From contig OZ242260.1 in NCBI GenBank assembly GCA_965207065.1, positions 3,872,001 to 3,936,000 of the forward strand: DNA of 64,000 nt, in the 5' to 3' direction. This stretch comes from a bacterium (GTDB taxonomy: Bacteria > UBA8248). Below the pieces are notes generated by a model that was given only the letters and a program-made list of their open reading frames with translations, ran no database searches and had not been told where the DNA came from. Below are positions 4,026 through 16,951 of this stretch, piece by piece. Numbering within the stretch: position 1 is the stretch's first letter; each line of letters starts with the position of its first letter. Made by a program: the position numbers and the translations under genes.

Positions 4026-5116
4026 ATCACCGTATCCGCCACATAATCGAGGTCCTCACCCGTCAATTCCGGATAGACGGGAAGCGACAAGACCTGGGCC
4101 GCTGCGGCTTCGCTCTCAGGAAAATCCCCTTGTCGATAGCTATCGAAGCAAGGATGGAGATGCAAGGGAGAAGGATAATACACGGCGCAACCCACTTCGT
4201 TTCGCAACAGGTATTCCTGCAGCGCGTCGCGCTCGGGTGTGCGAACCGCGTATTGGTGAAACACATGGCCCTCATCCGGGAACGAGGGCGGAGCGAACCG
4301 CTCCCCGATAATCCCGCCCGCCTCGAACCTTTCATGATATTTTCGGGCGTTTTCCCGCCTCTTTGCGCTCCACTCCTCCAGGCGATTTAGTTTGACGGAC
4401 AAAAACGCCGCCTGCATCGTATCCATTCTGAAATTCCCGCCTACTTCCAGATACTCGGAATTATCAGGCGAACCGTGAATCCTGAGCTTGCGCATGCGCT
4501 CGGCCAGCGCGTCGCTTTTGGTTAATACCATACCGGCGTCGCCAAGCGCGCTCAGGTTTTTCGTGGGATAAAACGACAGACAGCCCGCATCCCCGATGGC
4601 GCCGGCCACGCCCTGACTCATCCGCGCGCCGACGGCCTGGGCGGCGTCCTCAACTACATAAAGCTGGTGACGCTCGGCGATTTCGAGAATCTCCGCCATC
4701 GGAGCGCAGCGACCGTACATGTGAACTGGTATGATCCCTTTCGTATTCGGCGTGATGGCCTCTTCAAGCCGCCCCGATGCGAGATTGAACGTGTCGGGGT
4801 CGATATCCACGAACACCGGCTTCGCGCCCAGGCGATGGATGACGCCAGCGGTGGCAAAAAACGTGAACGCCGATGTGATGATTTCATCGCCCGGGCGTAC
4901 ATCGTTCGCCATCAGCGCCAACAGCAGAGCGTCCGTGCCCGAGGAGACGGCGATGGCGTGCTCCGCCCCGCAATAGGACGCCATTTCGGACTCGAAAGCG
5001 CTGATCTCCTCGCCCATGACGAACCTCTGGTGGGTCATCACGTTTTCGACAGCCGCCAAAAACTGCGCTTTCAGCGGCCCATTTTGAGCTTTCAAGTCAT
5101 AAAGGGGTACGCGCAT
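4004..5116 (-). CDS. DegT/DnrJ/EryC1/StrS family PLP sugar aminotransferase
   Basis: SSGTDAL, EDAAQAVGA, SFYPTKNLSALGDAG (PLP lysine). Confidence 0.93.
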   Translation of the reverse strand: MRVPLYDLKAQNGPLKAQFLAAVENVMTHQRFVMGEEISAFESEMASYCGAEHAIAVSSGTDALLLALMANDVRPGDEIITSAFTFFATAGVIHRLGAKPVFVDIDPDTFNLASGRLEEAITPNTKGIIPVHMYGRCAPMAEILEIAERHQLYVVEDAAQAVGARMSQGVAGAIGDAGCLSFYPTKNLSALGDAGMVLTKSDALAERMRKLRIHGSPDNSEYLEVGGNFRMDTMQAAFLSVKLNRLEEWSAKRRENARKYHERFEAGGIIGERFAPPSFPDEGHVFHQYAVRTPERDALQEYLLRNEVGCAVYYPSPLHLHPCFDSYRQGDFPESEAAAAQVLSLPVYPELTGEDLDYVADTVIQFFSVR

Positions 5117-5163
5117 GGAGACTTTCTTGTCCTATCGAAAATCCTCTTGGACGAAACACAAGT

Positions 5164-5186
5164 TGGTGCCGGAGGCCGGTTTCGAA
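5164..5186 (-). repeat. Distal att site: displaced 3' end of tRNA-Leu including CCA
   Basis: 5167-5179 tgccggaggccgg is identical to 15660-15672; after 2 mismatches tcgaa matches again; minus strand reads ..CCGGCCTCCGGCACCA. Confidence 0.9.
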
Positions 5187-5294
5187 TATGCCAGCTAAGG
5201 CATTGTATTTATTAATCTTGCAATTTCAAAACTTTCACTTAACCCACGATTTACACCACAAGATTATCATATTTCTCGCTTCTGTTGTGAAATC

Positions 5295-5765
5295 TTATAC
5301 CAAATTCCAAATACCCAAAATAGCACCAACAATGAAAGATAAAAGTCCTAAACCACCTGATACATTTTCCCAACATATCCAATTATTATGGCGTTCATTT
5401 AAATTTCCACACTCTTCATCAAATTTAACTCTACTGATTCTGTCCGCAGAATAATCTTGGGTAAGTTTATTGTGTTTTCTACTTAAGTCCATAAATCGCA
5501 AATACACACTACCATTGATCATAACAGCAAGAACAAGACCTAGGCAAAAACAGGCCATTGGTGGCCAAAGCCAAGCGTCATTATGAGGCTTCGCGGCAGT
5601 TAATACTGCCACTAGGGCACCGCCGTTCATAAAAACAAGATGGCGAATATACATGTATCCTGAAGATATTTCAGCATCAACAATCTTGGATGAGATACTT
5701 TCCGCAACCTCTACAAACTTTCTTTGGTATTCTTCTGGACTTTCAGAAAACCTGTGCTCATCCAT
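5295..5765 (-). CDS. AT-rich membrane cargo protein of unknown function
   Basis: 156 aa, about three TM segments (MNGGALVAVLT.., PPMACFCLGLVLAV.., GGLGLLSFIVGAILG); visibly more AT-rich than the rest of the element. Confidence 0.7.
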   Translation of the reverse strand: MDEHRFSESPEEYQRKFVEVAESISSKIVDAEISSGYMYIRHLVFMNGGALVAVLTAAKPHNDAWLWPPMACFCLGLVLAVMINGSVYLRFMDLSRKHNKLTQDYSADRISRVKFDEECGNLNERHNNWICWENVSGGLGLLSFIVGAILGIWNLV

Positions 5766-5895
5766 AGTCCAAACGCTCCCCTATTTTCAGTCGCCTACCC
5801 TCTCCTTTTAGGCCCTTTTTTTCCGGGGGGGAGTATACACCTTTCGGGAAAGGTTTTCTCGCGTCTTACGCCGTCTCTGCGAGCGTGGCGGCGGC

Positions 5896-6444
5896 CTAGC
5901 TTTCGGCGTCGACTTGGAATGAATCCCCGGCAAGGTCGACGGGAACGCGCTCCATTCGACCCACGGCCTGAACGTCTGGCTGTAGATATGCAATATCGAG
6001 GTCGATTGCGACCCGCTCCTCATATTCATCGTCCGGGATGATCGCGGAAACGTCTCGAACGACTAGCGGATTTCGCACCCGGAAGCGAGCGCCGCCGAAC
6101 GTCCCTTGAATCTCCGCGTCGTTCCTGTCGGCTTCGAGTCGGCCAAGGGGAGACTGCGACCACTTCACGAAGCGCTCCGCCGCCGACTGCGCTCCCGACC
6201 GGTAGAACTGGACGCTGTAGGTCGCAAAGTGAGTCGCCTGCACCGATACCCCTACCTGCCCGTCATCCGCGTCGAAGTAATGCTCTGACGCCTGTCCTGC
6301 TGTTGAATCGGTTATCAGAGTTACGGACGCGAACAACCCAGAGGGGAGCGGCGCGGATTCGTTTCCCGGAATGACGAGGGTCGTGTCGATGCCCGACCCC
6401 TTGGCGACGTAAGTGCGGAGCCTGCGTTCAAGGTTGATGTTCAT
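5896..6444 (-). CDS. Putative phage neck/tail-terminator (tail completion) protein
   Basis: Pattern VIPGNESAPLP..YSVQFY..A..AA..YEERVAIDLDIAY resembles neck terminator proteins; last gene of the overlapping structural operon. Confidence 0.6.
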   Translation of the reverse strand: MNINLERRLRTYVAKGSGIDTTLVIPGNESAPLPSGLFASVTLITDSTAGQASEHYFDADDGQVGVSVQATHFATYSVQFYRSGAQSAAERFVKWSQSPLGRLEADRNDAEIQGTFGGARFRVRNPLVVRDVSAIIPDDEYEERVAIDLDIAYLQPDVQAVGRMERVPVDLAGDSFQVDAES

Positions 6445-6947
6445 GCTCGACTTTCCTCAAGCATTTTCTTGCGCAAGTAACAGACCCGCGTCCGCGTTGC
6501 ATTGAACGTCCTACGACCGGAGAAGTGCTTTTGCCACACGTCCGGCCAGGTGCCCGGCGGAACTTTCGGAAACTCGATATGCGCAGCAAGGATTTCATCT
6601 TCCCATTCCTGCCAGTGTCCATCCTCCTCGGCGCTGCCCAGAAAATCGACATCCAACGTCCTAAGCCGTTCCAGTAGAGAAGCTTTGGAGCGACCCAAGG
6701 TAAACGCGAGCGCATCTAGTTCAGATAAGGCTTCATAGTGCTTATGGATAGGCACTGCCTTGCAAGCGAGGAGCGCCGCGTCTTCCTCGGCAGTCCAATC
6801 TTTTCTCGTGGTCTTTGGGTTTTCGATTCCAACCTTTGAGAAACCGTTCCGGCGATATCGGCTGTAGTGCTTATGGCAGAGGCCCCGAGCCGTTTTCACG
6901 CCCCCGCAGCCCTCGATCTCGCAAACCCGGTTGATGATGACCATCAC
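6441..6947 (-). CDS. Zn-finger (C-x4-C-x9-C-x2-H) plus two Myb/SANT-like repeats; putative DNA-binding protein
   Basis: CEIEGC..ARGLCHKHY; WTAEEDAALL..LGRSKASLLERLRTL; WQEWEDEIL..FSGRRTFNATRTR; 4-nt overlaps with both neighbours. Confidence 0.65.
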   Translation of the reverse strand: MMVIINRVCEIEGCGGVKTARGLCHKHYSRYRRNGFSKVGIENPKTTRKDWTAEEDAALLACKAVPIHKHYEALSELDALAFTLGRSKASLLERLRTLDVDFLGSAEEDGHWQEWEDEILAAHIEFPKVPPGTWPDVWQKHFSGRRTFNATRTRVCYLRKKMLEESRA

Positions 6948-8020
6948 GCCGCCTCATCGCCAATGCCTACAGCGGCCATTGCGACGCCGATATCAACACC
7001 CGCCTTGACGAGTTTGTCCACCACTTGGGCGCGGCTCACCATGTCCATGGCGTAGGTATCAAATTTCAGCCGGACTTCGGTTTCCAGCTTCAAGCTGAGT
7101 TCGTTTTCGAGCGCCTTTGCCAAAGGCATGACGACGTTCATATGCCAGCGGCGAACTGCTTCTCTTTGTCCGGTTCCGTCGGCATCGACAAAGAGGCTGG
7201 GAGGGCAACCGCATGCCGCCAGCGTGGCATCGAATGCGCCCTTCCGGATCGCTTCCATCACTTCGGGAGGCGAAGGCCCCAACCGATTAAAAGCCCAGCT
7301 TTTCGCGTCTCGCCCTTCGCCCATTGCGCTGGCGAGATTTTCTAACAAGATGGATTTTCCTCTGGCCCTGCCGATATCAGCCCGGAGAAGCACAAGTGGA
7401 TCGACGGCTTCACCCTCTTTGCCCGACGCGGCGCTCTGCGGCGGAATGACTGACACTTGAGCAAGGGGGCCGGAGACCTCATCCGCTAGGCTCCGTTCGG
7501 TTTCAGATTGCAGTCTCGCAGTCATGGCCGCCCATGACAGAGGCCCCACGCCAACATATCGCTGGCCGGGTGTGCTGCCCCATTTCACGAACACCACGCC
7601 GCTAAAAGGCAGGTGCTTGGTAACGGAAGATGACGGCCCGAACATAGTCGCCCGAACTCGCCACCGATCCGGATGAGGATCACCGTCGTCTTCAAAGTGC
7701 CAACTCGAAACCGGGAGGAGCGAAGCGCTGCCTGCGTGGTCTATGCCGATGTAGTGCATGGATGAACCGCGCCGGATGAGGTCTCTCCCGACCTGCGCGA
7801 GAAACTCCGGGGAGACGGCGTCTCTCGCCCAGCCCAGCCCCTGCACTTCGGCGGATGCGAACGCCCGAGAGAGCGCACCGCTGGCCGCCTCCACCGCCGC
7901 TGTAGACGAAGCGTCCGCCGCCGTGCCAGCCGCCTGCGCTTCGATGAGGCGAACCACGGCGGCGCTGAAATCTCCGCCTGATTCGCGCCTTTCCAGTTTT
8001 CCAAAAGGCCACCACTTCAT
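6944..8020 (-). CDS. Phage portal protein (divergent HK97-like)
   Basis: ATG at 8020 overlaps upstream TAA; N-terminal WWPFGKLERR; DLIRRGSS, GVGPL, ACGCPPSLF, VMPLAKALENELSLKL resemble portal motifs; context. Confidence 0.75.
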   Translation of the reverse strand: MKWWPFGKLERRESGGDFSAAVVRLIEAQAAGTAADASSTAAVEAASGALSRAFASAEVQGLGWARDAVSPEFLAQVGRDLIRRGSSMHYIGIDHAGSASLLPVSSWHFEDDGDPHPDRWRVRATMFGPSSSVTKHLPFSGVVFVKWGSTPGQRYVGVGPLSWAAMTARLQSETERSLADEVSGPLAQVSVIPPQSAASGKEGEAVDPLVLLRADIGRARGKSILLENLASAMGEGRDAKSWAFNRLGPSPPEVMEAIRKGAFDATLAACGCPPSLFVDADGTGQREAVRRWHMNVVMPLAKALENELSLKLETEVRLKFDTYAMDMVSRAQVVDKLVKAGVDIGVAMAAVGIGDEAA

Positions 8021-8376
8021 TAGGTGCTCCTCACAATGACGGCCTTGGTGTGAGAGCCGTTCCATGACTCGCTAGACTCTACCGAATACTCCACGTCATC
8101 GACGCGAACGCGATCCCCTCCAGCGTCGTCATGGGCCGCTTCAAGCACGTCCGCTTCCGGAATGTAGACTTTCCTTCGATGAATGAGCCGGGAGCCTTCG
8201 AGGAGATCAATATCCATGAGCTTGAGCGGCTGGACGCTGGCGAAATACTTCTTTTCCTCTACCGCTCCGGGTTGCCATTCGCCGAATTGATTTCTCTCAC
8301 CCGGCGCTTCGCGCAGCCGTGTGATGATGTCGGGGAAGCGTCTCATCCGATAGTTCCCGCGCGGTAGACGCGCCAA
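8020..8376 (-). CDS. Head-tail adaptor / head closure protein
   Basis: Small beta-rich protein (RNQFGEW..ASVQPL..GDRVRVDDVEYSV); follows the connector; true start may be the downstream ATG (MRRFPD). Confidence 0.65.
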   Translation of the reverse strand: MARLPRGNYRMRRFPDIITRLREAPGERNQFGEWQPGAVEEKKYFASVQPLKLMDIDLLEGSRLIHRRKVYIPEADVLEAAHDDAGGDRVRVDDVEYSVESSESWNGSHTKAVIVRST

Positions 8377-8690
8377 GGTGCGAGAAGGCTCATCGCGCCG
8401 CTGGCCTTGAGCGCGTTCGTGTTCGTGGTGGCGTAGGCGGTTTCAATGTCGCCGGTCTTCTCACTTCGGATGCTGGGCGAAGGTTGATCTTTGAGCCATC
8501 CCGCGCATCGTATTATTGCTTCGTTGCGAATTTCGAGCGGGGCGTCCGGGGCGTATTTCACAACAAGGCCATAGGCCACCGGGAGGAGGCGCTCGACGAG
8601 AGCCGCGTCGGTTATCTTCAAGGCCTCCGCCAGTTTCTCCGCCGTGATCCCGATGACGGCTTGGGGCGGATCGCCGAAACTCACAGCCAT
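8343..8690 (-). CDS. Head-tail connector protein (HK97 gp6 / SPP1 gp15-like)
   Basis: 115 aa helical protein with AP..IRNEAII..AGWL and C-terminal SLLAPWRV typical of gp6-like connectors. Confidence 0.7.
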   Translation of the reverse strand: MAVSFGDPPQAVIGITAEKLAEALKITDAALVERLLPVAYGLVVKYAPDAPLEIRNEAIIRCAGWLKDQPSPSIRSEKTGDIETAYATTNTNALKASGAMSLLAPWRVYRAGTIG

Positions 8691-9346
8691 CGGCGCGCCC
8701 TCCGGGGAGTGATGAGCGGGGCATCCGCTCTCAGATCGATCTCTGTGCTTCCGTATGCCGGACGGCTAACGATGCTTATCTCGTGCAGGACGGCCTGCTT
8801 CACGACTCGAATTTTGACGCCGGGGTTGCCAACTTCGTCGATGAGTTCCTCGGCATTTTGGACCACGTTGCGGGGAGGGATGCGGAAACCCGGACTCACG
8901 CCTCCTGCCCGGCCCGTGCGGATTTCCTTCACAACGTCCGCCATATAGGAGGGCATATCTTTCTCATCCGGGAGATCAACCTCGAAGCTGAGCGCGTCGT
9001 CTCCGTCCGCCACGCGAGCGGTTTTTCTGAGCATATCGCCTAGGGGCTTGTCGAATGAATGCCCGCTCAAGACGTGAACGTTCGCTCGCTCTAGCTGTTC
9101 TTCGATGATCTCTCTCTGCGCCTTCTCGATTCCCTCCTCGATGACGCGAGCAAGCTCTTTTTGCAGTTCCTGAAATCTTCTTACCTGCCAGCCGAAGGCG
9201 CGGGAGTTGATGCGCTCTTTTCGCACCCGTCCTCTGTCTCGAACTGTCGCCGTTTTTCCATACGGAAATTTTCCGCTGAGAATCCGGGAGGAGCCGCGCG
9301 CCCTGATTTCGAGTTCGCCGTCCAAAATCAAATAAGTTTCCGTCAT
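8681..9346 (-). CDS. HK97-family prohead protease
   Basis: Catalytic His (GHSFDKPLG), Ser (GGVSPGF), LHEISIVSRPAY; GAGGA SD before ATG 9346 (alternative ATG 9358). Confidence 0.88.
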   Translation of the reverse strand: MTETYLILDGELEIRARGSSRILSGKFPYGKTATVRDRGRVRKERINSRAFGWQVRRFQELQKELARVIEEGIEKAQREIIEEQLERANVHVLSGHSFDKPLGDMLRKTARVADGDDALSFEVDLPDEKDMPSYMADVVKEIRTGRAGGVSPGFRIPPRNVVQNAEELIDEVGNPGVKIRVVKQAVLHEISIVSRPAYGSTEIDLRADAPLITPRRARRWL

Positions 9347-9358
9347 GCTATTCCTCAT

Positions 9359-9437
9359 GGCGCTGGCGGTTGGAGGTAGGAAGGGTGAAGCCGCCCCTCC
9401 ACGGCGCGAGGCCGCCAGCGCCGCACCCTCGCGCCGT
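9359..9437 (-). ncRNA. Putative structured cis-RNA (H-type pseudoknot with inserted hairpin) between capsid and protease genes
   Basis: Two interleaved perfect 11-bp inverted repeats, 9427-9437/9401-9411 and 9412-9422/9359-9369, plus hairpin 9371-9401. Confidence 0.55.
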
Positions 9438-10724
9438 CTAGGTGCTCACCTGTAGCTGTACCTGAGCGTATGCGTCGGGCTGTGTGACGATGATGTCACC
9501 GAGCAGAACGTGCAAGGTGTAGTATCTTTCGGCCTTGGCGCTGCCCGTGTAGATGTCGTCTATGCTCACCTCGTTCCAGTGAGGACAGACGGCCGTCCGC
9601 ATCCCGCCTTCGCCGCCCATCATGGAGCGGCCCATCCGGTAGAGGATAGCTTGCGCGATGTTCGAGGCGGTGTCGGGCATTCTCTTGTTTGTCCAGAATC
9701 CGCCGAAGTGATCCATCGCGTAATCTGAAAACGCCTTGTCTCCCAAGTCTTGTCCGGTCGCATCGCGAAAGGCTTTCATCGCGAGGCGGTAGGTATCGGG
9801 GTTTACGACGATCCCGACCTCTTTGGCGGTCGATGCCCAGAGGCCGTCAATACCACCGGCGAACAGATCAACGAAGTCATCGAAGTCTGCGACGCCGGAC
9901 GGCGTCCCTTGAGGGTCTGTGAGGGCGGCGAACATTCCCTTGAGGTTCGGGGCCGTTCCGTTTCCGTTGATCGCCTGATCGTCCAGCGCATCGGAGAGGG
10001 CGAGGCTCAAGTTCTCTCTGAGGATGCTCTCGAAGTTCTCCTGCCCAACTGCGGCGATATCTTCAAGGGCCAGTTCCAGACGGGCGCTTACGCGCTTCGG
10101 TGTCGCCGTGGTTACGGTGAGAGCGCCAGCGGTCGCGGCGATGGCCGCGCTCTTGTCCTTCGCTTCGGCGGACTGCGAGCCGGTTATGGTCGCGGAGGCG
10201 AAGGTTCCCGACCCGACGCGCGGCATCTGGATTCCCAGCTTAGGCGCAATGCTGTGTGCGAACACGGCGGGCAAAATCGGATCTAAATTTATGCCGACGG
10301 TTCCCGGCGCTTCGGTGATGGCTCTCTTTTCAAGGTCGGGCCGGGGCACGTCGAAAATCTCAAGGGGAATTCCTGAGACGCCAGCCGCTTGGCGAAGTTC
10401 GAGTTCGGCTCCCGCCACCATGCGACCCTGCGCGGCGGCGGTGAAATACTCCGTGAGCTTTGCCCGGCTCCGCAGTTCGATGCGTTCATGCTGCTCTGCG
10501 TCGAAGCCGTTGGCATGGACGATGCTTTTCTTGTCGTCTTCTTCGAGCAGGAGGCGGACGGCGCTTCGGCGTTCGAGGAGCTTCTTTTTCTTCGCCGCCA
10601 GTTCGCGCAGTTCGGTGTCCGCTTCGTCGTTCAACGTCTCCTCACTGAGGAGTTCGGCGGAGCGCGTTTCCACCTGTTCGAGTTCGTCGGCAATTTGCCT
10701 GATTGCTTTCTGGTTTGGTGTCAT
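9438..10724 (-). CDS. HK97-fold major capsid protein with N-terminal coiled-coil (delta/scaffold) domain
   Basis: Charged helical N-terminus; TATPKRVSA..LALE, LSLALSDALDDQAINGNGT..NLKGMF, IVVNP motifs; context. Confidence 0.88.
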   Translation of the reverse strand: MTPNQKAIRQIADELEQVETRSAELLSEETLNDEADTELRELAAKKKKLLERRSAVRLLLEEDDKKSIVHANGFDAEQHERIELRSRAKLTEYFTAAAQGRMVAGAELELRQAAGVSGIPLEIFDVPRPDLEKRAITEAPGTVGINLDPILPAVFAHSIAPKLGIQMPRVGSGTFASATITGSQSAEAKDKSAAIAATAGALTVTTATPKRVSARLELALEDIAAVGQENFESILRENLSLALSDALDDQAINGNGTAPNLKGMFAALTDPQGTPSGVADFDDFVDLFAGGIDGLWASTAKEVGIVVNPDTYRLAMKAFRDATGQDLGDKAFSDYAMDHFGGFWTNKRMPDTASNIAQAILYRMGRSMMGGEGGMRTAVCPHWNEVSIDDIYTGSAKAERYYTLHVLLGDIIVTQPDAYAQVQLQVST

Positions 10725-10765
10725 GGTCTTCCCTCATTTTCGCGAAATGAATATACCTTGACGCA

Positions 10766-10804
10766 AAGATAGGTGTTTTCGACGAATCCGTCAAGTAATT
10801 GATA
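10766..10804 (-). promoter_or_regulatory. Sigma70-like promoter of the capsid operon with adjacent IHF consensus site
   Basis: Minus strand TTGACG (10789-10794), N17, TATCTT (10766-10771); TATCAATTACTTG (10792-10804) matches WATCAANNNNTTR. Confidence 0.6.
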
Positions 10805-10907
10805 TTAAATGAGTTACAGTGATATTAGGTTGGTATCACGGAAGGGAGATGAAAAACTGGAAAAACCCTGATAATCAATTCCTAAATTTCAACAACGTGG
10901 AGGAATC

Positions 10908-11147
10908 ATGCCTCGAAAAAAAGACCCACCGCCGCGCTGCGAGTTCTTAGAATTATGGGAAAATCCTATAACCGGAGAAACAGCACAAATACGTTGTGGC
11001 CGTGCAGCAGGTAACAAAGATACACCGCATATGTGTTCCCCAGGCGGAGAGCATCCGCCAGCACCTAGTGAGGTGGACGAGAACGGCTGGCCAAAATTGT
11101 TTGGCGGTTGGACGATAGAAGAAAGGAGACGCCCTATACGTCCATAA
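10908..11147 (+). CDS. Small hypothetical protein, opposite strand to the element (moron-like)
   Basis: GGAGG SD; 79 aa with 3 Cys/2 His; converges on and overlaps the HNH 3' end by 14 nt. Confidence 0.55.
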   Translation: MPRKKDPPPRCEFLELWENPITGETAQIRCGRAAGNKDTPHMCSPGGEHPPAPSEVDENGWPKLFGGWTIEERRRPIRP

Positions 11148-11424
11148 TTTCATTCAAGAACATCACCCACTGCTTCTCATCGTGAGTGAGCTTCCTGCGA
11201 TGCTCGTCAACGTGGCATGTTCGGCACAAGGTGCGGATTCCGTCCAAATTATAGGGGTCTCCGCCATCCCAGAGCGGCGGATCGTGATGCGCTTCGAGAC
11301 GTCCTGCGGCTCCGCATTTCGTGCACCGGAAGCCGTCTCTTTCGAAGCACTCACGCCTCGCCCGCGCCCACCTTGCTTGATTCATCGCGGAGTAGTTTTT
11401 CGACCCCGGATGCTTTCGGCTCAC
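11134..11424 (-). CDS. HNH endonuclease (HK97 gp74-like terminase cofactor)
   Basis: RDGFRCTKCG..EAHH..GGD..LCRTCH; GTGA/ATGA-type overlap with terminase stop. Confidence 0.88.
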   Translation of the reverse strand: MSRKHPGSKNYSAMNQARWARARRECFERDGFRCTKCGAAGRLEAHHDPPLWDGGDPYNLDGIRTLCRTCHVDEHRRKLTHDEKQWVMFLNEIMDV

Positions 11425-12851
11425 TCACAAAGTCCTCCATATCGCCAATTAGGTTTGGATGGTCTACTCAACTCCCGATAGAACGCTCCAGCCGATAGCG
11501 TTAACGCAGCTGCTACGTCGTCTCTTGCTTCGTTGTTTGCCCCTCGCTTGGAAAGGCGGGTATTACCTTGATCGTCATTCTTCACCAATGCCGCCGATAG
11601 GCTGGCCGTCAAAAGTAATCGGGAGCCATCCTCACATGATAGCGGGCCATCCTTCGCCAACTTTCGGAGCGCTCGAATATCCTCTGCCGCCTCACTCCAG
11701 CGAGCTACCCTAGGCTGTAACGGGATGCCGTTCGTGCAGTCCTGTAGTTCTGCCAGCCGAAAGCGGTCGGAGACGATGACTCCCGGCTCTCCCCACTCGC
11801 TCAAGATGGCACCCACCAACTGCGCCGGGGGTTGAACACGCAATCCTTCCGCTACGCGCAAAGCCCCGGACTGAGCGAGTCTCTGATATGTTCCTTTTGG
11901 AACCCTATCCCGCTTTTCCTGATCGGCCAGCGAGGGGATACCCGGAGCTACGGCCAGCGCCTCGACGCGCCCGGAGCGCCATATTCCCACCGCCGCAGAC
12001 CATGCCCTTCCACCGCCCAGGTCAACTCCCACGAAAGGCAAACCCTCTCGCTTCGCCACCGGACGGGAACATACTCGCTCAAAATCATCGACGGAGAGGA
12101 GCATTGTAGATTCATCCCCGCTAGGACAATTTAGACGATAGCTCAAGAATCGCGCCTTGAGACGAGTATCCCGCCGCGCTTCGTCTCTCTCTGCTAAGAG
12201 TTTCTTTCGGAATTCTGGCGATACCGCCGTAAGTGGATTGCATCGGCGAATCTCCGGCCATTGCTCCCATTTATCTGGGTCTCCTATGAGGGCTTGAACA
12301 TAGGTAGACCCGCCCGTTCCATCATTCACGAGGTCATGCCACCAGCCACCCAGGGACGGCGCGAGAGTTCCAATGAATAGAGCCTTTAGCGGACTTCCCG
12401 GCTTACCCTGAGCGGTCGTGATGCTGTCATATAGTTGCTGCCCGCCTATGACTTCGGCGCTCCCCGGCTCATCGAATATCGCCCACGGACACCCCACTAG
12501 CCCGAAGGACGTTTTCGAGTTGCTCCCGGCTACCCGTAGCCTCGTATTCGTAGGCTCGTGCGTTATCGCGCACCGCGTCGCACTATCAAGAAACCGATAC
12601 CCGCCGAGCGGCTCAAGGGTAGCTCGCGCGAACCTGAAAACGATTCTGCATTGCTCGATTGAACCTGAGAAAAGAACCGACTCCGTTCCCGGACGGAAAA
12701 GAAAATCATCCGGCGAAAGCACACGCGAGACAATATACCCGGCTAGCCATGACTTGCCGTTGCCTCTGGGGATTGATAGCGCCGCCGTATCCACCCCCGG
12801 AGCCGTAGCTTCCTTGATGAAACACTTTTGAAATGGCCGAAGTTCAATCAA
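11421..12851 (-). CDS. terL: Terminase large subunit
   Basis: Q motif LRPFQ, Walker A IPRGNGKS, Walker B WAIFDE, nuclease GVDLG and C-terminal DDVAAAL. Confidence 0.88.
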   Translation of the reverse strand: MIELRPFQKCFIKEATAPGVDTAALSIPRGNGKSWLAGYIVSRVLSPDDFLFRPGTESVLFSGSIEQCRIVFRFARATLEPLGGYRFLDSATRCAITHEPTNTRLRVAGSNSKTSFGLVGCPWAIFDEPGSAEVIGGQQLYDSITTAQGKPGSPLKALFIGTLAPSLGGWWHDLVNDGTGGSTYVQALIGDPDKWEQWPEIRRCNPLTAVSPEFRKKLLAERDEARRDTRLKARFLSYRLNCPSGDESTMLLSVDDFERVCSRPVAKREGLPFVGVDLGGGRAWSAAVGIWRSGRVEALAVAPGIPSLADQEKRDRVPKGTYQRLAQSGALRVAEGLRVQPPAQLVGAILSEWGEPGVIVSDRFRLAELQDCTNGIPLQPRVARWSEAAEDIRALRKLAKDGPLSCEDGSRLLLTASLSAALVKNDDQGNTRLSKRGANNEARDDVAAALTLSAGAFYRELSRPSKPNWRYGGLCE

Positions 12852-12920
12852 GGCGATTCCCCATTACACAAACGAGCCCAACGTCGCCCCTACCTTGTGA
12901 TCGCCGCGCCGCCGGTGCCA

Positions 12921-13070
12921 TCACGCCTTCTTGTATTCCCCGCACCACCACTCCGCCATCACAAAAGGCCAAGTTCTTTTGTCTCCCGGTCTAGGCGGGA
13001 AGCGATGACACTCTCCGTTAATGTTTGATTTTGATTCGTAGTAGGCGCATGACTCGCATTTTCCCTTCAC
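12921..13070 (-). CDS. 49-aa Cys-rich protein, below ORF-track cutoff (MKGKCESCAYYESKSNINGECHRFPPRPGDKRTWPFVMAEWWCGEYKKA)
   Basis: GTG start overlaps upstream TGA (GTGA coupling); CxxC..CxRxPP..WPxV..WCGE pattern resembles small phage proteins; manually translated. Confidence 0.7.
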   Translation of the reverse strand: MKGKCESCAYYESKSNINGECHRFPPRPGDKRTWPFVMAEWWCGEYKKA

Positions 13071-13306
13071 GGTATTTCCTCCTCGTGCTCATGGGCGGGT
13101 TGTAGGTGATTCAGCGTGTCCGCTAGCGCGGCGGCGAAGGTCTGGGCGTCCTCGCGACCAAGGCGGCGGGCATATGCCCGGAGAATACCGACGCGGACGT
13201 GATAACTTTTGAGTTCGTGGAGGTGGAGAAGTCGTCCGCACACGTCGCACGTTAGCCACTTGTCTCCAGCTTTCGGGGTGCGCCAGTGGTGAGGTCTACA
13301 CGCCAT
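13067..13306 (-). CDS. Small putative Zn-binding protein
   Basis: GGAGG SD before ATG 13306; CxxH..CxxC (CRPHHW..LTCDVCG). Confidence 0.65.
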   Translation of the reverse strand: MACRPHHWRTPKAGDKWLTCDVCGRLLHLHELKSYHVRVGILRAYARRLGREDAQTFAAALADTLNHLQPAHEHEEEIP

Positions 13307-13354
13307 GAGTTCATCCTCCCGCCGCCGATTCAAAAGTAGAACTTCAAAGCCTTT

Positions 13355-13509
13355 GACTTTCGACTTTGATCTCCGGTTCTGACTTTGAGACTTTCCCTCC
13401 TACCGACCGCTTCTTATATTTCTGAATTTGTCTCTGGTTGTTTCTCTCGCGGTGCCTCATTTTTGAGGCGTTAAATTGCGTTTAATGCCTCACTTTCGAG
13501 GCGTTAAAT
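13355..13509. repeat. Putative replication origin: two 24-bp iteron-like repeats plus four GACTTT hexamers
   Basis: tgcctcatttttgaggcgttaaat (13453-13476) vs tgcctcactttcgaggcgttaaat (13486-13509), 33-bp period; GACTTT at 13355, 13362, 13381, 13389. Confidence 0.55.
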
Positions 13510-13930
13510 CCTCGCCATCATTAGGGAATAGCAGGTCGATGTCGCCATGCTTGAGGATATCTCCCGTTCTCGCGTTCACTTTCCAAAGCGCCCCCATTTT
13601 CTTCGGGCTAGGCTGTCGAACAATAAATCCCTTGGCCTTGAGGCCAGCTTGCGCACGCTCGATTGCCGCCTTGCTCTTGCCCGTCATATCCCGAATCGCT
13701 TCGTTCGTGATCACCCTGCAATCGTTTCGCCACCCACCTAGCAAGAGCATGGCGGCGAAGACTTTGAACTCGGAATCCGTGAGCCTGAAATAGGCCTCTC
13801 GCATAGGCGCGAATTTACCATCGATGCGTTTACTCTTTTTCCCATTCTTCAAAACCGGCGAGGTTTCCGGAACAATGATTCCATCCGTCTCCGATTGACT
13901 CCGTGATACTCGGCTGGTATCTTTCACCAT
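13490..13930 (-). CDS. Winged helix-turn-helix protein, replication-initiator-like N-terminal domain
   Basis: LTDSEFKVFAAM..ITNEAIRDMTGKSKAAIERAQAGLKAKGFI wHTH pattern; sits in the usual rep position after alpA. Confidence 0.65.
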   Translation of the reverse strand: MVKDTSRVSRSQSETDGIIVPETSPVLKNGKKSKRIDGKFAPMREAYFRLTDSEFKVFAAMLLLGGWRNDCRVITNEAIRDMTGKSKAAIERAQAGLKAKGFIVRQPSPKKMGALWKVNARTGDILKHGDIDLLFPNDGEDLTPRK

Positions 13931-13944
13931 GATATTTGTTTCTC

Positions 13945-13982
13945 GAAAAGCCCCGATGACTTTGGCCGGTCTGGGGCTTTTC
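13945..13982. terminator. Hairpin between alpA and the wHTH gene (possible terminator/attenuator)
   Basis: Perfect 10-bp inverted repeat gaaaagcccc / ggggcttttc. Confidence 0.45.
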
Positions 13983-14007
13983 TATTTCTGGGCGGAGAAA
14001 GAAGTCC

Positions 14008-14199
14008 CTAGGCGACTGGGGCCGTAGAGCGCGGACGTGATTCGATCCATGCGCGGATTTCATCTTCGCGCCAGCGAACCGCGCGCGGCCCGATCTTGAG
14101 CGCCTTGGGAAATTCGCCCTCGTCCATGAGACGATAGATTGTTGACTTGACGTATCCGGTGATTTCGCAGACTTGCTTACAGGTGAGCAGCTTTGGCAT
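14008..14199 (-). CDS. alpA: AlpA-family regulator / excisionase
   Basis: LLTCKQVCEITGYVKSTIYRLMDEGEFPKALKIGPRAVRWREDEIRAWI. Confidence 0.93.
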   Translation of the reverse strand: MPKLLTCKQVCEITGYVKSTIYRLMDEGEFPKALKIGPRAVRWREDEIRAWIESRPRSTAPVA

Positions 14200-14216
14200 T
14201 TCGAGTCCACCCCATA

Positions 14217-14258
14217 AAAAAGAAAGTGAACCTCCGGCCTTCCCAGCGCCAGAGGTCT
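14217..14258 (-). terminator. Putative intrinsic terminator downstream of integrase
   Basis: Minus strand stem ACCTCTGGC..GCCGGAGGT followed by TCACTTTCTTTTT. Confidence 0.45.
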
Positions 14259-14308
14259 CCTTTCAGGTCTACAGGGGATAACTAAAATACCTTAATGGAC
14301 TTTATCAG

Positions 14309-15496
14309 TCAATTCCCTCGAATCGAGATCACCTTCCCGCGCTCGCCACCCGCCACATAGCGGCCCCACTGCTCCATCAGGCGCACTCGCTTGGCGAATA
14401 GATCGGAGCGCGCATAAGCCCTTTCCGTGGCGTCCCCGACGTGGTGCGCCAAGCATAGCTCCATGACGGCGTGTTCGGCGTTCGTTTCCTCCGCCGCCCA
14501 CACTCTGAACGATGATCTGAAACCATGCACGACTGCTTTCTCAGCGAGGCCCGTGTCTCTCAGGATTTTTGTTAGGCCCATGTTTGAAATCGGCTTGCCT
14601 TTCCGCACGGGCGACGGAAAAACCAGTCCGCTCTCATCGCCTAGCAGCTTTGCTTTTTCCAGCACGGCCAGAGCCTGATCGCTCAAGGGCTGTCTGTGCT
14701 CGCGTCCGCTCTTTGCGCGGCTGGCGGGGATACGCCACGTCCGCGCCTCGGTGTCAATTTCAGACCATTCCGCCAGCCTCGCTTCCCCAGAGCGGCAAGC
14801 GGTAAGAATCACAAATTCGAGACACGCCTTGGTGCTCATCGACGCTTTACTGCCCCTCACGATTTCAAGCGCTTCGGGAACTTCTGCATACGGGAGCGCC
14901 CGGAAATTCTCCCGGACGGCGGGCATACTCGGGAGCGCGCCGGATACCGCCTCTCCCGCCACGTTCACTTCCACCAGTCCATGCGACAGCGCCCATGATA
15001 GAGTCGCCTTGATCCCCCGTCGCAGTTTCCGGCCCATTTCCGGCTTAGAAGTCCACAGAGGAGTCAAGATGTTCAGCACGTCCTCGCGGCCTACCTTGTC
15101 CACGGGTAGATCGCCGATACGCTGGAAGGCGTGGCGCTCTAAAATCTGCCACCAGTTCTTTCTCACCTTATCGTTGCGCCAGCGCGGGGAGAGGGCCTCA
15201 TGCGTCCGCTTCGCCGCTTCCCGGAATGTAGGAGTCTTTGCTTTGCGTTTCTCCGTCAAGGGGTTATTCCCGTCTGCCACGGCGACCCGATTCTCGAATG
15301 CCTTACGCCTCGCTTTTTCGAGAGAAACGACCGGCCATCCCCCTAGCCCGATATCGCGTCTGCGTCCTTCAATCGTGACTCTTTGAATCCAATTTTTCCC
15401 ACCGGAAGGCGTTACGTTCAAAAAGAGAGTTCCGCCGTCGCTGTAGCGACCCGGTTTTTTGATGCCTCTCACCTTCGCAACTGATAGATTTCCCAT
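14309..15496 (-). CDS. int: P4-type tyrosine integrase with arm-binding domain
   Basis: N-terminal DGGTLFLNVTPSGGKNW..GLGGWPVVSL; catalytic R (TACRSGE), HGFR, LAH, Y (AYARSD) all present. Confidence 0.95.
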   Translation of the reverse strand: MGNLSVAKVRGIKKPGRYSDGGTLFLNVTPSGGKNWIQRVTIEGRRRDIGLGGWPVVSLEKARRKAFENRVAVADGNNPLTEKRKAKTPTFREAAKRTHEALSPRWRNDKVRKNWWQILERHAFQRIGDLPVDKVGREDVLNILTPLWTSKPEMGRKLRRGIKATLSWALSHGLVEVNVAGEAVSGALPSMPAVRENFRALPYAEVPEALEIVRGSKASMSTKACLEFVILTACRSGEARLAEWSEIDTEARTWRIPASRAKSGREHRQPLSDQALAVLEKAKLLGDESGLVFPSPVRKGKPISNMGLTKILRDTGLAEKAVVHGFRSSFRVWAAEETNAEHAVMELCLAHHVGDATERAYARSDLFAKRVRLMEQWGRYVAGGERGKVISIRGN

Positions 15497-15659
15497 GCCC
15501 GTTTTCTCCCATAACCCACGATTTAACCCACGTTCGATCGCGGACTTTAACGGACTCGAACGGACTTGTCAAGACCCAAAACCGCTTGTAACTAACTGAT
15601 ATATTTATATTTATTGTTTAGGAAAAGACCTTGCCGGTCTTCATCGGACTATAAGGAAA

Positions 15660-15743
15660 TGCCGGAGGCCGGACTCGAACCGGCAAGGGGTTGCCCCCGG
15701 TGGATTTTGAGTCCACTGCGTCTACCAATTCCGCCACTCCGGC
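15660..15743 (-). tRNA. tRNA-Leu(CAA), no encoded CCA
   Basis: GCCGGAG/CTCCGGC acceptor stem, GTGGA-CTCAAAA-TCCAC anticodon arm, long variable arm GGGGCAACCCC, GGTTCGAGTCC T arm. Confidence 0.96.
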
Positions 15744-15818
15744 AGAAAGAAAATGTAACTTAGCCTCTCCTCATGCCTTCTGGCAAGATGTGTCTCGATT
15801 TTTCGCAGCGTGCGAGAC

Positions 15819-16079
15819 TCATCCACCATATTCCGACCAGGTCGACGCCGAAACCTCCTGCGCATCCACTCGCCAGGAAATGGAATCCTCACACCCAGGA
15901 CACAAAACGATAAAGCGCCCCTCCGGGTCTTCTTCCATCTCGTCCCTGAACACTTTGAGGCAGTTGCGGCAATGCACCCGGCTGCAGGCGGTACACGCAT
16001 TCGGGTGCGCATGCTGAAATCGCAAACCACATGCGGGGCATTCATGAGTTTCCACATCTTCCCTTTCATCGCCGCGCAA
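15819..16079 (-). CDS. Small Cys-rich hypothetical protein (four CxxC)
   Basis: CPAC, CTAC, CRNC, CPGC in 86 aa. Confidence 0.55.
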   Translation of the reverse strand: MRGDEREDVETHECPACGLRFQHAHPNACTACSRVHCRNCLKVFRDEMEEDPEGRFIVLCPGCEDSISWRVDAQEVSASTWSEYGG

Positions 16080-16177
16080 AACACGTATTCATGGCGGCGT
16101 CTTCGAATCTTTGCTACATTTTCCTGAATCCAAAATCGTCAAATTACTCGCACTTCTACGGAAAGGATGAATATACC

Positions 16178-16951
16178 ATGATAATCGACACGGACCGCCT
16201 GGATGATTACGAGATTCTCGACTTGAGCCACCCCTGGGGGCATGGCGCCCCGCTCTGGCCCTACTTTCCCGATGTCAAGATCGAAAGGTTTCACTATCAC
16301 GCCAAAAGCCAGGTGCTGAGCCAGCAAATCACCACGTTCATGCACTGCACGACCCACACCGACGCGCCCGCACACGTCATCGAGGGCACGCCTTTCATGG
16401 ATGAGGTACCGCTGCAAAGCTATTTCGGCAACGCCGTGTGCGTCGATATTCCAAAAGAGGAATGGGAAGTCATAACGCCCGAGGACCTCGAGAACGCAAG
16501 GCCGGAGATTCGCCCGGGCGACATCGTTATCGTTCATACCGGATGGCACCGATATTACGGCGACAACACCAAATACTTCATCTACTCCCCCGGTCTGTAC
16601 AAGGAGGCGGGCGAGTGGTTCGTGGAGCGCGGCGTCAAGGGCGTGGGCGTGGACCAGCAGGCGCTCGACCATCCGCTTGGGACGAAAATCGCCTGGGGGC
16701 CCCAGCCCATCTGTCCGTTTACTATCGAGGAATACGAGCAACGCTTCGACCGCCCCACGAGTGAGGCTTTCCCCGATTGGGAGCCTTGCCACCGCGCGCT
16801 TCTGGGGAATGGAATCGTCGGCTTCGAGAACGTGGGGGGAGACATCGACAAGGTCGTGGGCAAACGATTCGCGCTCGCGGCATTTCCCTGGCGGTGGACG
16901 GGCGGTGACGGCTGTATCGTAAGGATGGTGGCGTTTTTGCCGAAAAACTAA
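16178..16951 (+). CDS. Cyclase family (kynurenine formamidase-like) metal hydrolase
   Basis: HCTTHTDAPAH metal motif, GDIVIVHTGW, GVGVD, ENVG; ATG 16178 after AAGGA. Confidence 0.9.
   Translation: MIIDTDRLDDYEILDLSHPWGHGAPLWPYFPDVKIERFHYHAKSQVLSQQITTFMHCTTHTDAPAHVIEGTPFMDEVPLQSYFGNAVCVDIPKEEWEVITPEDLENARPEIRPGDIVIVHTGWHRYYGDNTKYFIYSPGLYKEAGEWFVERGVKGVGVDQQALDHPLGTKIAWGPQPICPFTIEEYEQRFDRPTSEAFPDWEPCHRALLGNGIVGFENVGGDIDKVVGKRFALAAFPWRWTGGDGCIVRMVAFLPKN

Follow-up and report, generated by a model that had tools for sequence, protein, structure and literature searches.

Phage-inducible chromosomal islands that form capsids (cf-PICIs) are reported only from Proteobacteria and Firmicutes in the available part of the preprint that describes them, with at least three origins (bioRxiv 10.1101/2022.09.08.507074). 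According to the same portion of text, proteobacterial members are 50–90% similar to the head module of EcCIEDL933 and run capsid-protease-portal-connectors and then hnh-terS-terL, and one Firmicutes group opens with HNH-TerS-TerL. The SatelliteFinder paper, in its accessible text, sets out 11 core components, allows neither tail nor holin genes and puts the median size at 14 kb. Here we analyse a stretch of 64,000 nt from a bacterial genome (GenBank assembly GCA_965207065.1, contig OZ242260.1, positions 3,872,001 to 3,936,000; hereafter the window, in whose own numbering its positions are given), which holds a ~10.5-kb island carrying a tyrosine integrase, an AlpA regulator, an HK97-type head set, a neck set and an HNH-TerL pair. 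The island is probably a capsid-forming phage satellite in its integrated state, from a lineage that stands apart from the described cf-PICIs, and such elements most likely borrow their tails from other phages. An earlier reading made from the letters alone (the sequence-only reading) had proposed a distinct satellite lineage with terL-HNH first and the portal after the neck genes; the comparisons below support that proposal, and satellite behaviour itself, namely helper dependence, excision and packaging, is what we infer.

The island is a precise insertion into the 3′ end of a tRNA-Leu(CAA) gene, the sole tRNA that ARAGORN found in the window. The features that define its ends, including the attachment (att) sites, and its integration genes are as follows:

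15659–15744, minus strand: tRNA-Leu(CAA), whose 3′ 20 nt (15660–15679) form attR
5167–5186, unstranded: attL, a displaced duplicate of the tRNA-Leu 3′ end that matches at 18 of 20 nt, with the first 13 exact; empty site in relatives
14309–15496, minus strand: tyrosine integrase with arm-binding domain (PF13356, PF22022 and PF00589, each ~1e-18; phrog_1 1.2e-46)
14008–14199, minus strand: AlpA-family regulator/excisionase (PF05930 9.6e-18; TIGR01764 1.6e-7)
5235–5259 and 15507–15531, unstranded: 25-nt repeat pair inside both island ends, 84% identical with 13 nt exact

The sequence-only reading had bounded the island at 5164–15672 by a tRNA-Leu repeat; the repeat (20 nt, 18 identical) and the presence of both att sites, at 5167–5186 and 15660–15679, held up, and the exact ends had to be moved to 5167 and 15679. 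A search of 22 other species genomes of the same genus with the right flank gave matches that all start at the tRNA 3′ end. Nine same-genus loci were returned with flanks. In eight of them (L024–L031) the left flank aligns to 5186 and the right flank from 15660, an overlap of exactly the 20-nt repeat; the site is therefore empty there, and the insert in the window is a precise 10,493 bp. The ninth locus (L032) is cut short on the left. GC content dips to 0.447 at the left end of the insert (5001–6000), compared to 0.55–0.61 elsewhere, and host genes abut both att sites, the neighbourhood being one of housekeeping functions (aminotransferase, PlsY, BamD, a sigma factor, IlvE and aromatic amino-acid synthesis genes). 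The 25-nt repeat pair is a candidate that could be an integrase arm-type or excisionase site. Neither an attP nor an empty-attB joint was found in three sequencing runs from one study, which contain the stretch as contigs only; since contigs drop rare forms, these runs are uninformative on excision or expression, and none of the listed runs with the stretch is on record as RNA.

The head, packaging and neck genes of the island are:

11421–12851, minus strand: TerL, large terminase, with a TTG start and a Walker-A-like PRGNGKS near the N-terminus (phrog_9 2.9e-31)
11134–11424, minus strand: HNH endonuclease, overlapping terL by 4 nt (PF01844 1e-5; phrog_589 2.2e-13)
9438–10724, minus strand: HK97-type major capsid protein with a charged coiled-coil, delta-domain-like N-terminus (PF05065 1.7e-8; phrog_10)
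8681–9358, minus strand: prohead serine protease S78 (PF04586 4.5e-15; TIGR01543; phrog_80)
8343–8690, minus strand: conn115, head-tail connector/adaptor-like protein (phrog_442 7e-4), with tblastn matches in 14 of 14 long related loci
8020–8376, minus strand: adapt118, head-closure-like neck protein (phrog_939 2.4e-7), with homologues in related loci L007 and L011
6944–8065, minus strand: portal (PF04860 6.4e-8, below the Pfam cut-off; phrog_12), whose true start may be downstream of 8065
5896–6444, minus strand: neck182, tail-terminator/'gateway'-fold neck protein (PF23961 2.5e-13; NF047498 44.2 bits, cut-off 28)

Profile searches run on the open reading frames (ORFs) with Pfam, PHROGs and NCBIfam bore out the gene list and minus-strand order of the sequence-only reading. 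All ORFs of the island are intact and coupled, as it had also stated, and 4-base overlaps occur at four junctions (terL/HNH, portal/orf168, orf168/neck182 and, among the small genes described below, orf88/orf49). No tail or lysis family matched among the island proteins in Pfam, PHROGs, NCBIfam or PADLOC, in agreement with the earlier proposal. Set against what defines a cf-PICI, the island has an integrase and an AlpA-type regulator at one end, its own capsid, protease and portal (the portal below cut-off), and connector and adaptor genes, these partly by position since their PHROG matches are weak; the positional analogue of adapt118 in locus L020 matches PF05521. Neither tail nor holin genes matched; some profile sets might class the terminator-fold neck protein with tails. 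Of the HNH-TerS-TerL trio, HNH and TerL are present and a TerS family was not found, and of the primase-replicase module there are only the sub-threshold lambda-O N-terminal matches of orf146. The SatelliteFinder cfPICI model, as given in the accessible text, makes a call at 9 or more of 11 components, and we would guess that about 7–8 are recognisable here. The family fits the functional definition of cf-PICIs in the available descriptions, and not their sequence family, order or size.

The capsid gene is single-copy in its 4.48-Mb genome, and its homologues are found in 6 of the 61 genomes sampled around that genome (itself included) and in 6 of the 51 phylum genomes covered. Relative to the window's protein, the capsids are 57–60% identical in a same-genus genome, 64% in a Spirochaetaceae metagenome-assembled genome (MAG) and 70% (best segment) in an Alphaproteobacteria MAG, and a broader search gave 1722 capsid homologues at E≤0.001 among 8000 candidates scored. 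Single-protein pattern scans recovered one locus in genome contigs and none in viral contigs; an alignment query did better. We compared 16 loci (four genomic, one contig titled Alphaproteobacteria MAG, two IMG/VR contigs and nine metagenome contigs), reading gene order by tblastn with the window's proteins; L014 and L019 end just past the capsid, and L021 and L022 look like one element on two records. The order capsid, connector, portal is kept in all 14 loci long enough to judge, the portal homologues in 14 loci being 34–65% identical. The genes run terL-HNH-capsid on one strand in 14 of the 15 loci with terL/HNH matches, the terL-HNH pair being inverted in L007, and neither terL nor HNH was detected in L011 by tblastn with the window's queries. 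An integrase was found in 11 of the 14 long loci and not in L011, L012 or L015. Eight elements are delimited by tRNA-derived direct repeats, with sizes of 9,494–10,594 bp:

Window element: 10,493 bp, in tRNA-Leu
L007: 10,005 bp, in tRNA-Glu(CTC)
L008: 10,515 bp, in tRNA-Asn
L010: 9,494 bp, in tRNA-Glu(CTC)
L013: 9,739 bp, in tRNA-Lys(TTT)
L017: 10,487 bp, in tRNA-Glu(TTC)
L018: 10,564 bp, in tRNA-Lys(CTT)
L021: 10,594 bp, in tRNA-Ser

The same plan extends into the class of the Alphaproteobacteria MAG, where the capsid profile has matches (E≤1e-10) in 5 of 301 sampled genomes and three of six loci fetched (L053, L055 and L056) are again tailless and ~10 kb. Tape-measure, tube, sheath, baseplate and holin families were matched by none of 143 + 94 + 27 proteins from relatives (Pfam, PHROGs), the sole tail-related matches being single genes in L021, L017 and L020, and no full-length prophage with this order plus tails was found among 22 related loci fetched or in 50,697 phage records. 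The sequence-only reading had named three outcomes that would mark the island as a relic: closest homologues that are full-length prophages, a lack of independent syntenic tailless copies, and relaxed selection. The first two did not materialise, and neither did the third. By the Nei-Gojobori method, the ratio of nonsynonymous to synonymous substitution rates (dN/dS) is 0.15–0.3 for most listed capsid and portal pairs, with a highest value of 0.44, and the least saturated pair, L016 and L017, gives 0.22 for the capsid and 0.15 for the portal. For the window copy dS is saturated, and the proportion of nonsynonymous differences (pN 0.26–0.33) is far below that of synonymous ones (pS 0.66–0.79). 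These ratios, well below 1, indicate that capsid and portal are under purifying selection.

The neck gives a hint of how heads made by the window element could meet a tail. Among 1.84 billion representatives, 344 are related to neck182 at E≤0.001, and its AlphaFold2 model, built from a 53-row alignment, has a mean predicted local distance difference test score (pLDDT) of 91 and a predicted template modelling score (pTM) of 0.83. A Foldseek search of the PDB with this model ranked neck proteins of the contractile-tailed phages PhiTE, Pam3, Bas63, XM1, Sf14, Pa193 and E217 at the top (8.4e-10 to 1.2e-6), followed by lambda gpU, T4 gp15 and T5 p142, with sequence identity to the structural matches of 10–17%. 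In E217, the available text on the virion places the 183-residue gateway protein gp29 on the tail tube, under the collar and head-to-tail adaptor, with a C-terminal strand that recruits six sheath subunits (PMC10329688). neck182 shares the fold and near-equal length (182 aa), and the conn115-adapt118-neck182 trio mirrors the adaptor-collar-gateway stack of E217 as described there; unlike the gateway and terminator genes of myophages, the neck182 gene lies in a tailless island and not in a tail operon. Since its predicted fold comes closest to myophage gateway proteins, neck182 may serve for docking onto contractile tails. A complex of adapt118 and neck182 was predicted with a score of 0.66 (best of three controls 0.00), a mark that 58 of 80 solved complexes attain, as do 2 of 110 mismatched pairs, with runs agreeing in at least 92% of contacts and partner pLDDT of at least 77. 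The two proteins may thus be in contact, and because stopper-terminator complexes have already been solved, the pass may reflect likeness to those complexes rather than binding.

Single head-tail interface genes were also observed at varying positions in relatives: a Dit-like gene in L021 (3932–4420; PF21821 7.9e-17), a Neck1/tail completion gene in L017 (6631–7071; phrog_169 3.1e-18) and a head completion gene in L020 (12018–12401; PF05521). The window element has its terminator-fold gene in their stead. Across the 51 phylum genomes, the neck182 profile found elsewhere only a 74-aa ORF fragment in genome G003 and a marginal match in G022; the G003 fragment was considered as a sign of a helper prophage and rejected, its neighbourhood being no prophage.

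The head and packaging proteins are distant from those of known phages. In the 50,697 phage records, tblastn gave no match to the capsid at 1e-5 and none to the portal at 1e-3; TerL matched 41 records, all at <60% identity, and the best listed matches, 26–27% identical with E ~1e-7, are the HK97-like lambdoid phages HK75, HK446, mEp390 and mEpX2. These four, whose cos packaging depends on HNH, resemble the island in having the closest phage TerL, an HNH gene next to the terminase and capsid, protease and portal of the HK97 families, but their records are 37–40 kb and tblastn picked up no similarity in capsid or portal. They carry tails, lysis genes and TerS, and their order is portal-protease-capsid. 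The tail, tape-measure and lysis modules of an intact HK97-like temperate phage were not detected in the island, and host genes begin directly beyond its ends.

Among described satellites, the one with which the island has most in common by inventory is EcCIEDL933, which we located in the EDL933 chromosome and which is annotated with int, a helix-turn-helix (HTH) regulator, a DUF927 protein, capsid, protease, portal, head closure, connector, HNH, P27-family TerS and TerL. In both, int and AlpA are followed by the element's own capsid, protease, portal, head-tail joining proteins, HNH and TerL without tail or lysis genes, and in both the capsid precedes the protease, unlike in most phages. This shared inventory, the occurrence of the island's family in Alphaproteobacteria as well, and identities to EcCIEDL933 of 23.5% for the integrase, 38% for AlpA and 31% for the protease are what could make the island a divergent, rearranged member of the described proteobacterial cf-PICI family rather than a separate lineage. 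We regard this as very unlikely: capsid, portal, TerL and HNH have no tblastn match in EcCIEDL933 at E≤1, the capsid profile comparison gives 1.55% probability, TerL aligns only around Walker A and the portal yields no alignment, whereas proteobacterial members are, in the available part of the preprint, 50–90% similar to EcCIEDL933 and share its order (bioRxiv 10.1101/2022.09.08.507074), neither of which we found here. EcCIEDL933 is also larger (15.4 kb versus 10.5 kb) and runs capsid-protease-portal-closure-connector-HNH-terS-terL, whereas the island has terL-HNH first and the portal after the connector genes; the P27-type TerS and DUF927 primase of EcCIEDL933 were not found in the island, which has a small O-like winged-helix protein instead and an extra terminator-fold neck protein. 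The island's host is presumably from neither Proteobacteria nor Firmicutes, given that its phylum is represented by no more than 51 species genomes in the collection. Firmicutes group 2 (Lactococcus/Enterococcus), compared by its description in the accessible text only, likewise opens its operon with packaging genes ahead of the head genes, but as HNH-TerS-TerL, whereas the window has TerL-HNH and no TerS that we could find. The gene order thus differs, as the sequence-only reading had claimed, from the cf-PICI orders given in that part of the preprint and from EcCIEDL933 as annotated. We found no description of the family in open-access papers and bioRxiv; members may be among the elements tabulated in the supplements of the papers on cf-PICIs and SatelliteFinder.

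That the island is instead a now immobile deletion remnant of an HK97-like prophage, stripped of its tail and lysis genes, is highly improbable. Fragments or frameshifted copies do exist (G029, L054, L057, L008) and an excision junction was not seen in the sequencing-run contigs, but eight delimited elements of one size class (9.5–10.6 kb) share one order at different tRNA targets, every ORF of the window island is intact and coupled, dN/dS is low, and no full-length tailed relative turned up in the related loci or the phage records. A self-sufficient transfer element, whose tailless capsids package island or host DNA in the manner of a gene transfer agent (GTA) without a dedicated helper, is unlikely too, if somewhat less so. 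It would accord with the helper-type tail genes not found in the genome and with the circular 13.6-kb L012, in which a tyrosine integrase was not found and which hints at an episomal life style; yet connector, head-closure and terminator-fold proteins are kept, whose sole known role is head-to-tail joining, and no lysis or receptor-binding gene was detected (Pfam, PHROGs). Nor does the island look like a GTA of the RcGTA type, which is a non-excising cluster passed on vertically, with tail genes but neither integrase nor att sites: integrase and att sites are both present here, relatives have the site unoccupied, and the family is sporadic, in 6 of 51 phylum genomes.

A separate satellite lineage therefore remains our preferred reading of the island, and several results weigh against it. 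Portal, TerL and capsid score near or below curated Pfam/NCBIfam cut-offs. No TerS family matched in the window proteins (Pfam, PHROGs, NCBIfam) or in the scanned relatives, as the sequence-only reading had noted for the island, whereas a cf-PICI module has one. No helper was identified: searches of the genome that holds the island found no member of the tape-measure (PF10145), sheath (PF04984) or baseplate J (PF04865) families, and the only portal match is the island's; a TerL_nuclease search of that genome missed even the island's TerL, and these helper negatives are therefore weak. Some relatives show signs of decay, with only fragments at L054 and L057 in the second class and only a 138-aa piece in G029; L008, from another family of the same class, has int (15038–16209) and portal (6910–7988) each in two frames, which could be decay or assembly error. 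Finally, tblastn found no counterpart of neck182 in the other related loci probed, and the idea of tail capping therefore concerns this element and not the family.

The remaining features of the island are:

13490–13930, minus strand: orf146, winged-helix protein (TIGR01610 2.9e-5, below cut-off; phrog_277 8e-4)
13453–13508, unstranded: two 23-nt hairpin-containing repeats, 33 bp apart, at the orf146 3′ end (2 matches versus 0 expected)
13067–13333, minus strand: orf88, small Cys/His protein, likely start 13306, with homologues upstream of terL in L009 and L010
12921–13070, minus strand: orf49, small Cys-rich protein with a strong Shine-Dalgarno sequence, no match in Pfam, PHROGs, PADLOC or NCBIfam
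10908–11147, plus strand: orf79, opposite-strand ORF with GGAGGA Shine-Dalgarno sequence upstream, no family match
10766–10826, unstranded: promoter-like hexamers, back to back, in the HNH-capsid gap (matches to the consensus only)
6441–6947, minus strand: orf168, with a Cys-rich N-terminus and two Myb/HTH-like helical units (phrog_5351 1.5e-9, on the N-terminal Cys motif)
5295–5765, minus strand: cargo156, 156 aa with hydrophobic stretches, where the GC content of the island is lowest (0.447)

The sub-threshold similarity of orf146 is to the lambda O N-terminal domain, in both TIGR01610 and phrog_277, making it a candidate lambda-O-like replication initiator. It occupies the slot between alpA and terL that holds winged-helix replication initiators in L007, L015, L016, L017 and L018, and AAA_25, PriCT or Zn-ribbon primase-helicase genes in L008, L012, L013 and L020. 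The statement of the sequence-only reading that there is no obvious pri-rep module was thus too strong and needs softening, because the island has an O-like candidate initiator and primase-helicases occur in relatives. The hairpin repeats at 13453–13508 are candidate iterons, marking an origin, or a packaging site.

Because TerS proteins diverge fast, a cryptic TerS is conceivable, with orf88, orf49 and orf168 as candidates. All-against-all clustering of ORFs from 14 elements, whose output is dominated by overlapping-frame noise, gave no small family upstream of terL in more than three loci, and a conserved TerS family was rejected on this basis. orf88 has three close homologues besides its own entry and no match in the family scans. 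For orf168, homologues follow the portal in L008 and L011; its Myb match is sub-threshold (E 0.0087, Pfam), a small-protein search found only itself, and its AlphaFold2 model is poor (pLDDT 63.9) and unusable for structure search. We consider it a putative sequence-specific DNA binder. Atlas look-ups for the small proteins (0.80–0.89), taken as leads only, pointed to small viral zinc proteins and to Myb/HTH_23/GcrA-like proteins, and sequence searches of solved structures with neck182, orf146 and the capsid profile gave nothing usable. orf79 had no homologue in Pfam, PHROGs, PADLOC or the clustering across related loci, and its reality as a gene is therefore uncertain. A terminator-like hairpin lies 3′ of HNH. 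cargo156 stands where satellites often carry accessory or defence genes; it matched no family in Pfam (only MASE4, 0.005), PHROGs, PADLOC or NCBIfam, and PADLOC gave no defence-family match for it or for the small proteins.

Several other observations concern the relatives. L012 is an IMG/VR contig (1–13632) with a 55-bp terminal overlap consistent with a circle, its extra length being a Tn3-family transposase (PF01526 6e-106) in an otherwise typical element; it may be an episomal member. The metagenome contig L015 (1–10399) carries Rep-like and AlpA-like genes after the portal in a permuted order and no detected integrase, an arrangement compatible with an excised or episomal form, though the ends of this 10,399-bp contig do not overlap as those of a circle would. 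In the Alphaproteobacteria MAG, the capsid gene of L011 (5524–8711) is split by ~2 kb, the insert being an opposite-strand group II intron-type reverse transcriptase/maturase (PF00078 6.7e-36, PF08388). L058 (4259–14393), one of the six loci fetched from the second class, is another tailless island; it lies by a tRNA-Thr and runs integrase pieces, portal, capsid, protease, terL; given this differing order, compact capsid-forming islands in these hosts seem to come in several gene orders. In that MAG's class, capsid-profile matches occur at three places on two contigs in G066 and at five places in G072, some of them across the two genomes partial, and several family members or remnants may coexist in one genome.

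A working model for the island can be put forward. AlpA-driven excision would be triggered by a helper phage, of which the tests run found none resident in this genome, and the lambda-O-like orf146 protein would start replication at the hairpin repeats by its gene. The terL-HNH unit and the capsid operon would be transcribed separately. The satellite would build its own small heads; ~10.5 kb is close to the genome size of phage P4, and a T=4 or smaller shell is therefore likely. HNH and TerL would cut and package unit-length genomes in the cos-type manner of HK97-like phages, with orf88, orf49 and orf168 as candidates for recognising the DNA to be packaged, and the self-encoded neck would join helper-made tails. 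In contractile tails a ring caps the tube and holds on to the sheath, and the terminator-fold protein looks like this ring; a myophage is therefore the probable helper, whose tails the satellite may cap with a ring of its own. A bolder and tentative version, possible in our view but hardly favoured, is that the family is a fourth independently evolved capsid-forming satellite lineage, reduced to ~10 kb and present in hosts labelled with different phyla, with HNH and TerL working without a conventional TerS and, in the window element, a gateway ring of its own capping the unfinished tube and sheath of a contractile-tailed helper, those tails then fitting only the satellite neck. If that version were true, it would be piracy at the tail-termination step and not mere capture of finished tails.

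The capsid-forming strategy itself is already known; the lineage, its small size and host range, the missing TerS and a satellite-borne terminator are new as far as the literature searched shows, and the family is widespread and apparently undescribed in open-access papers and bioRxiv. If our reading holds, the strategy would reach into a small and little-studied phylum, as well as into hosts labelled Alphaproteobacteria and Spirochaetaceae, with a smaller, differently ordered satellite design added. Since the family is abundant and its capsid and portal are invisible to BLAST in the phage records, such islands could be mis-called as defective prophages. They would offer a compact 10-gene head-and-neck system for the study of small HK97-fold capsids, and the missing TerS poses a clean question about how an HNH-TerL pair recognises its DNA. 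The variable slot, filled by a terminator, Neck1 or Dit-like gene, may mark how satellites match different helper tails.

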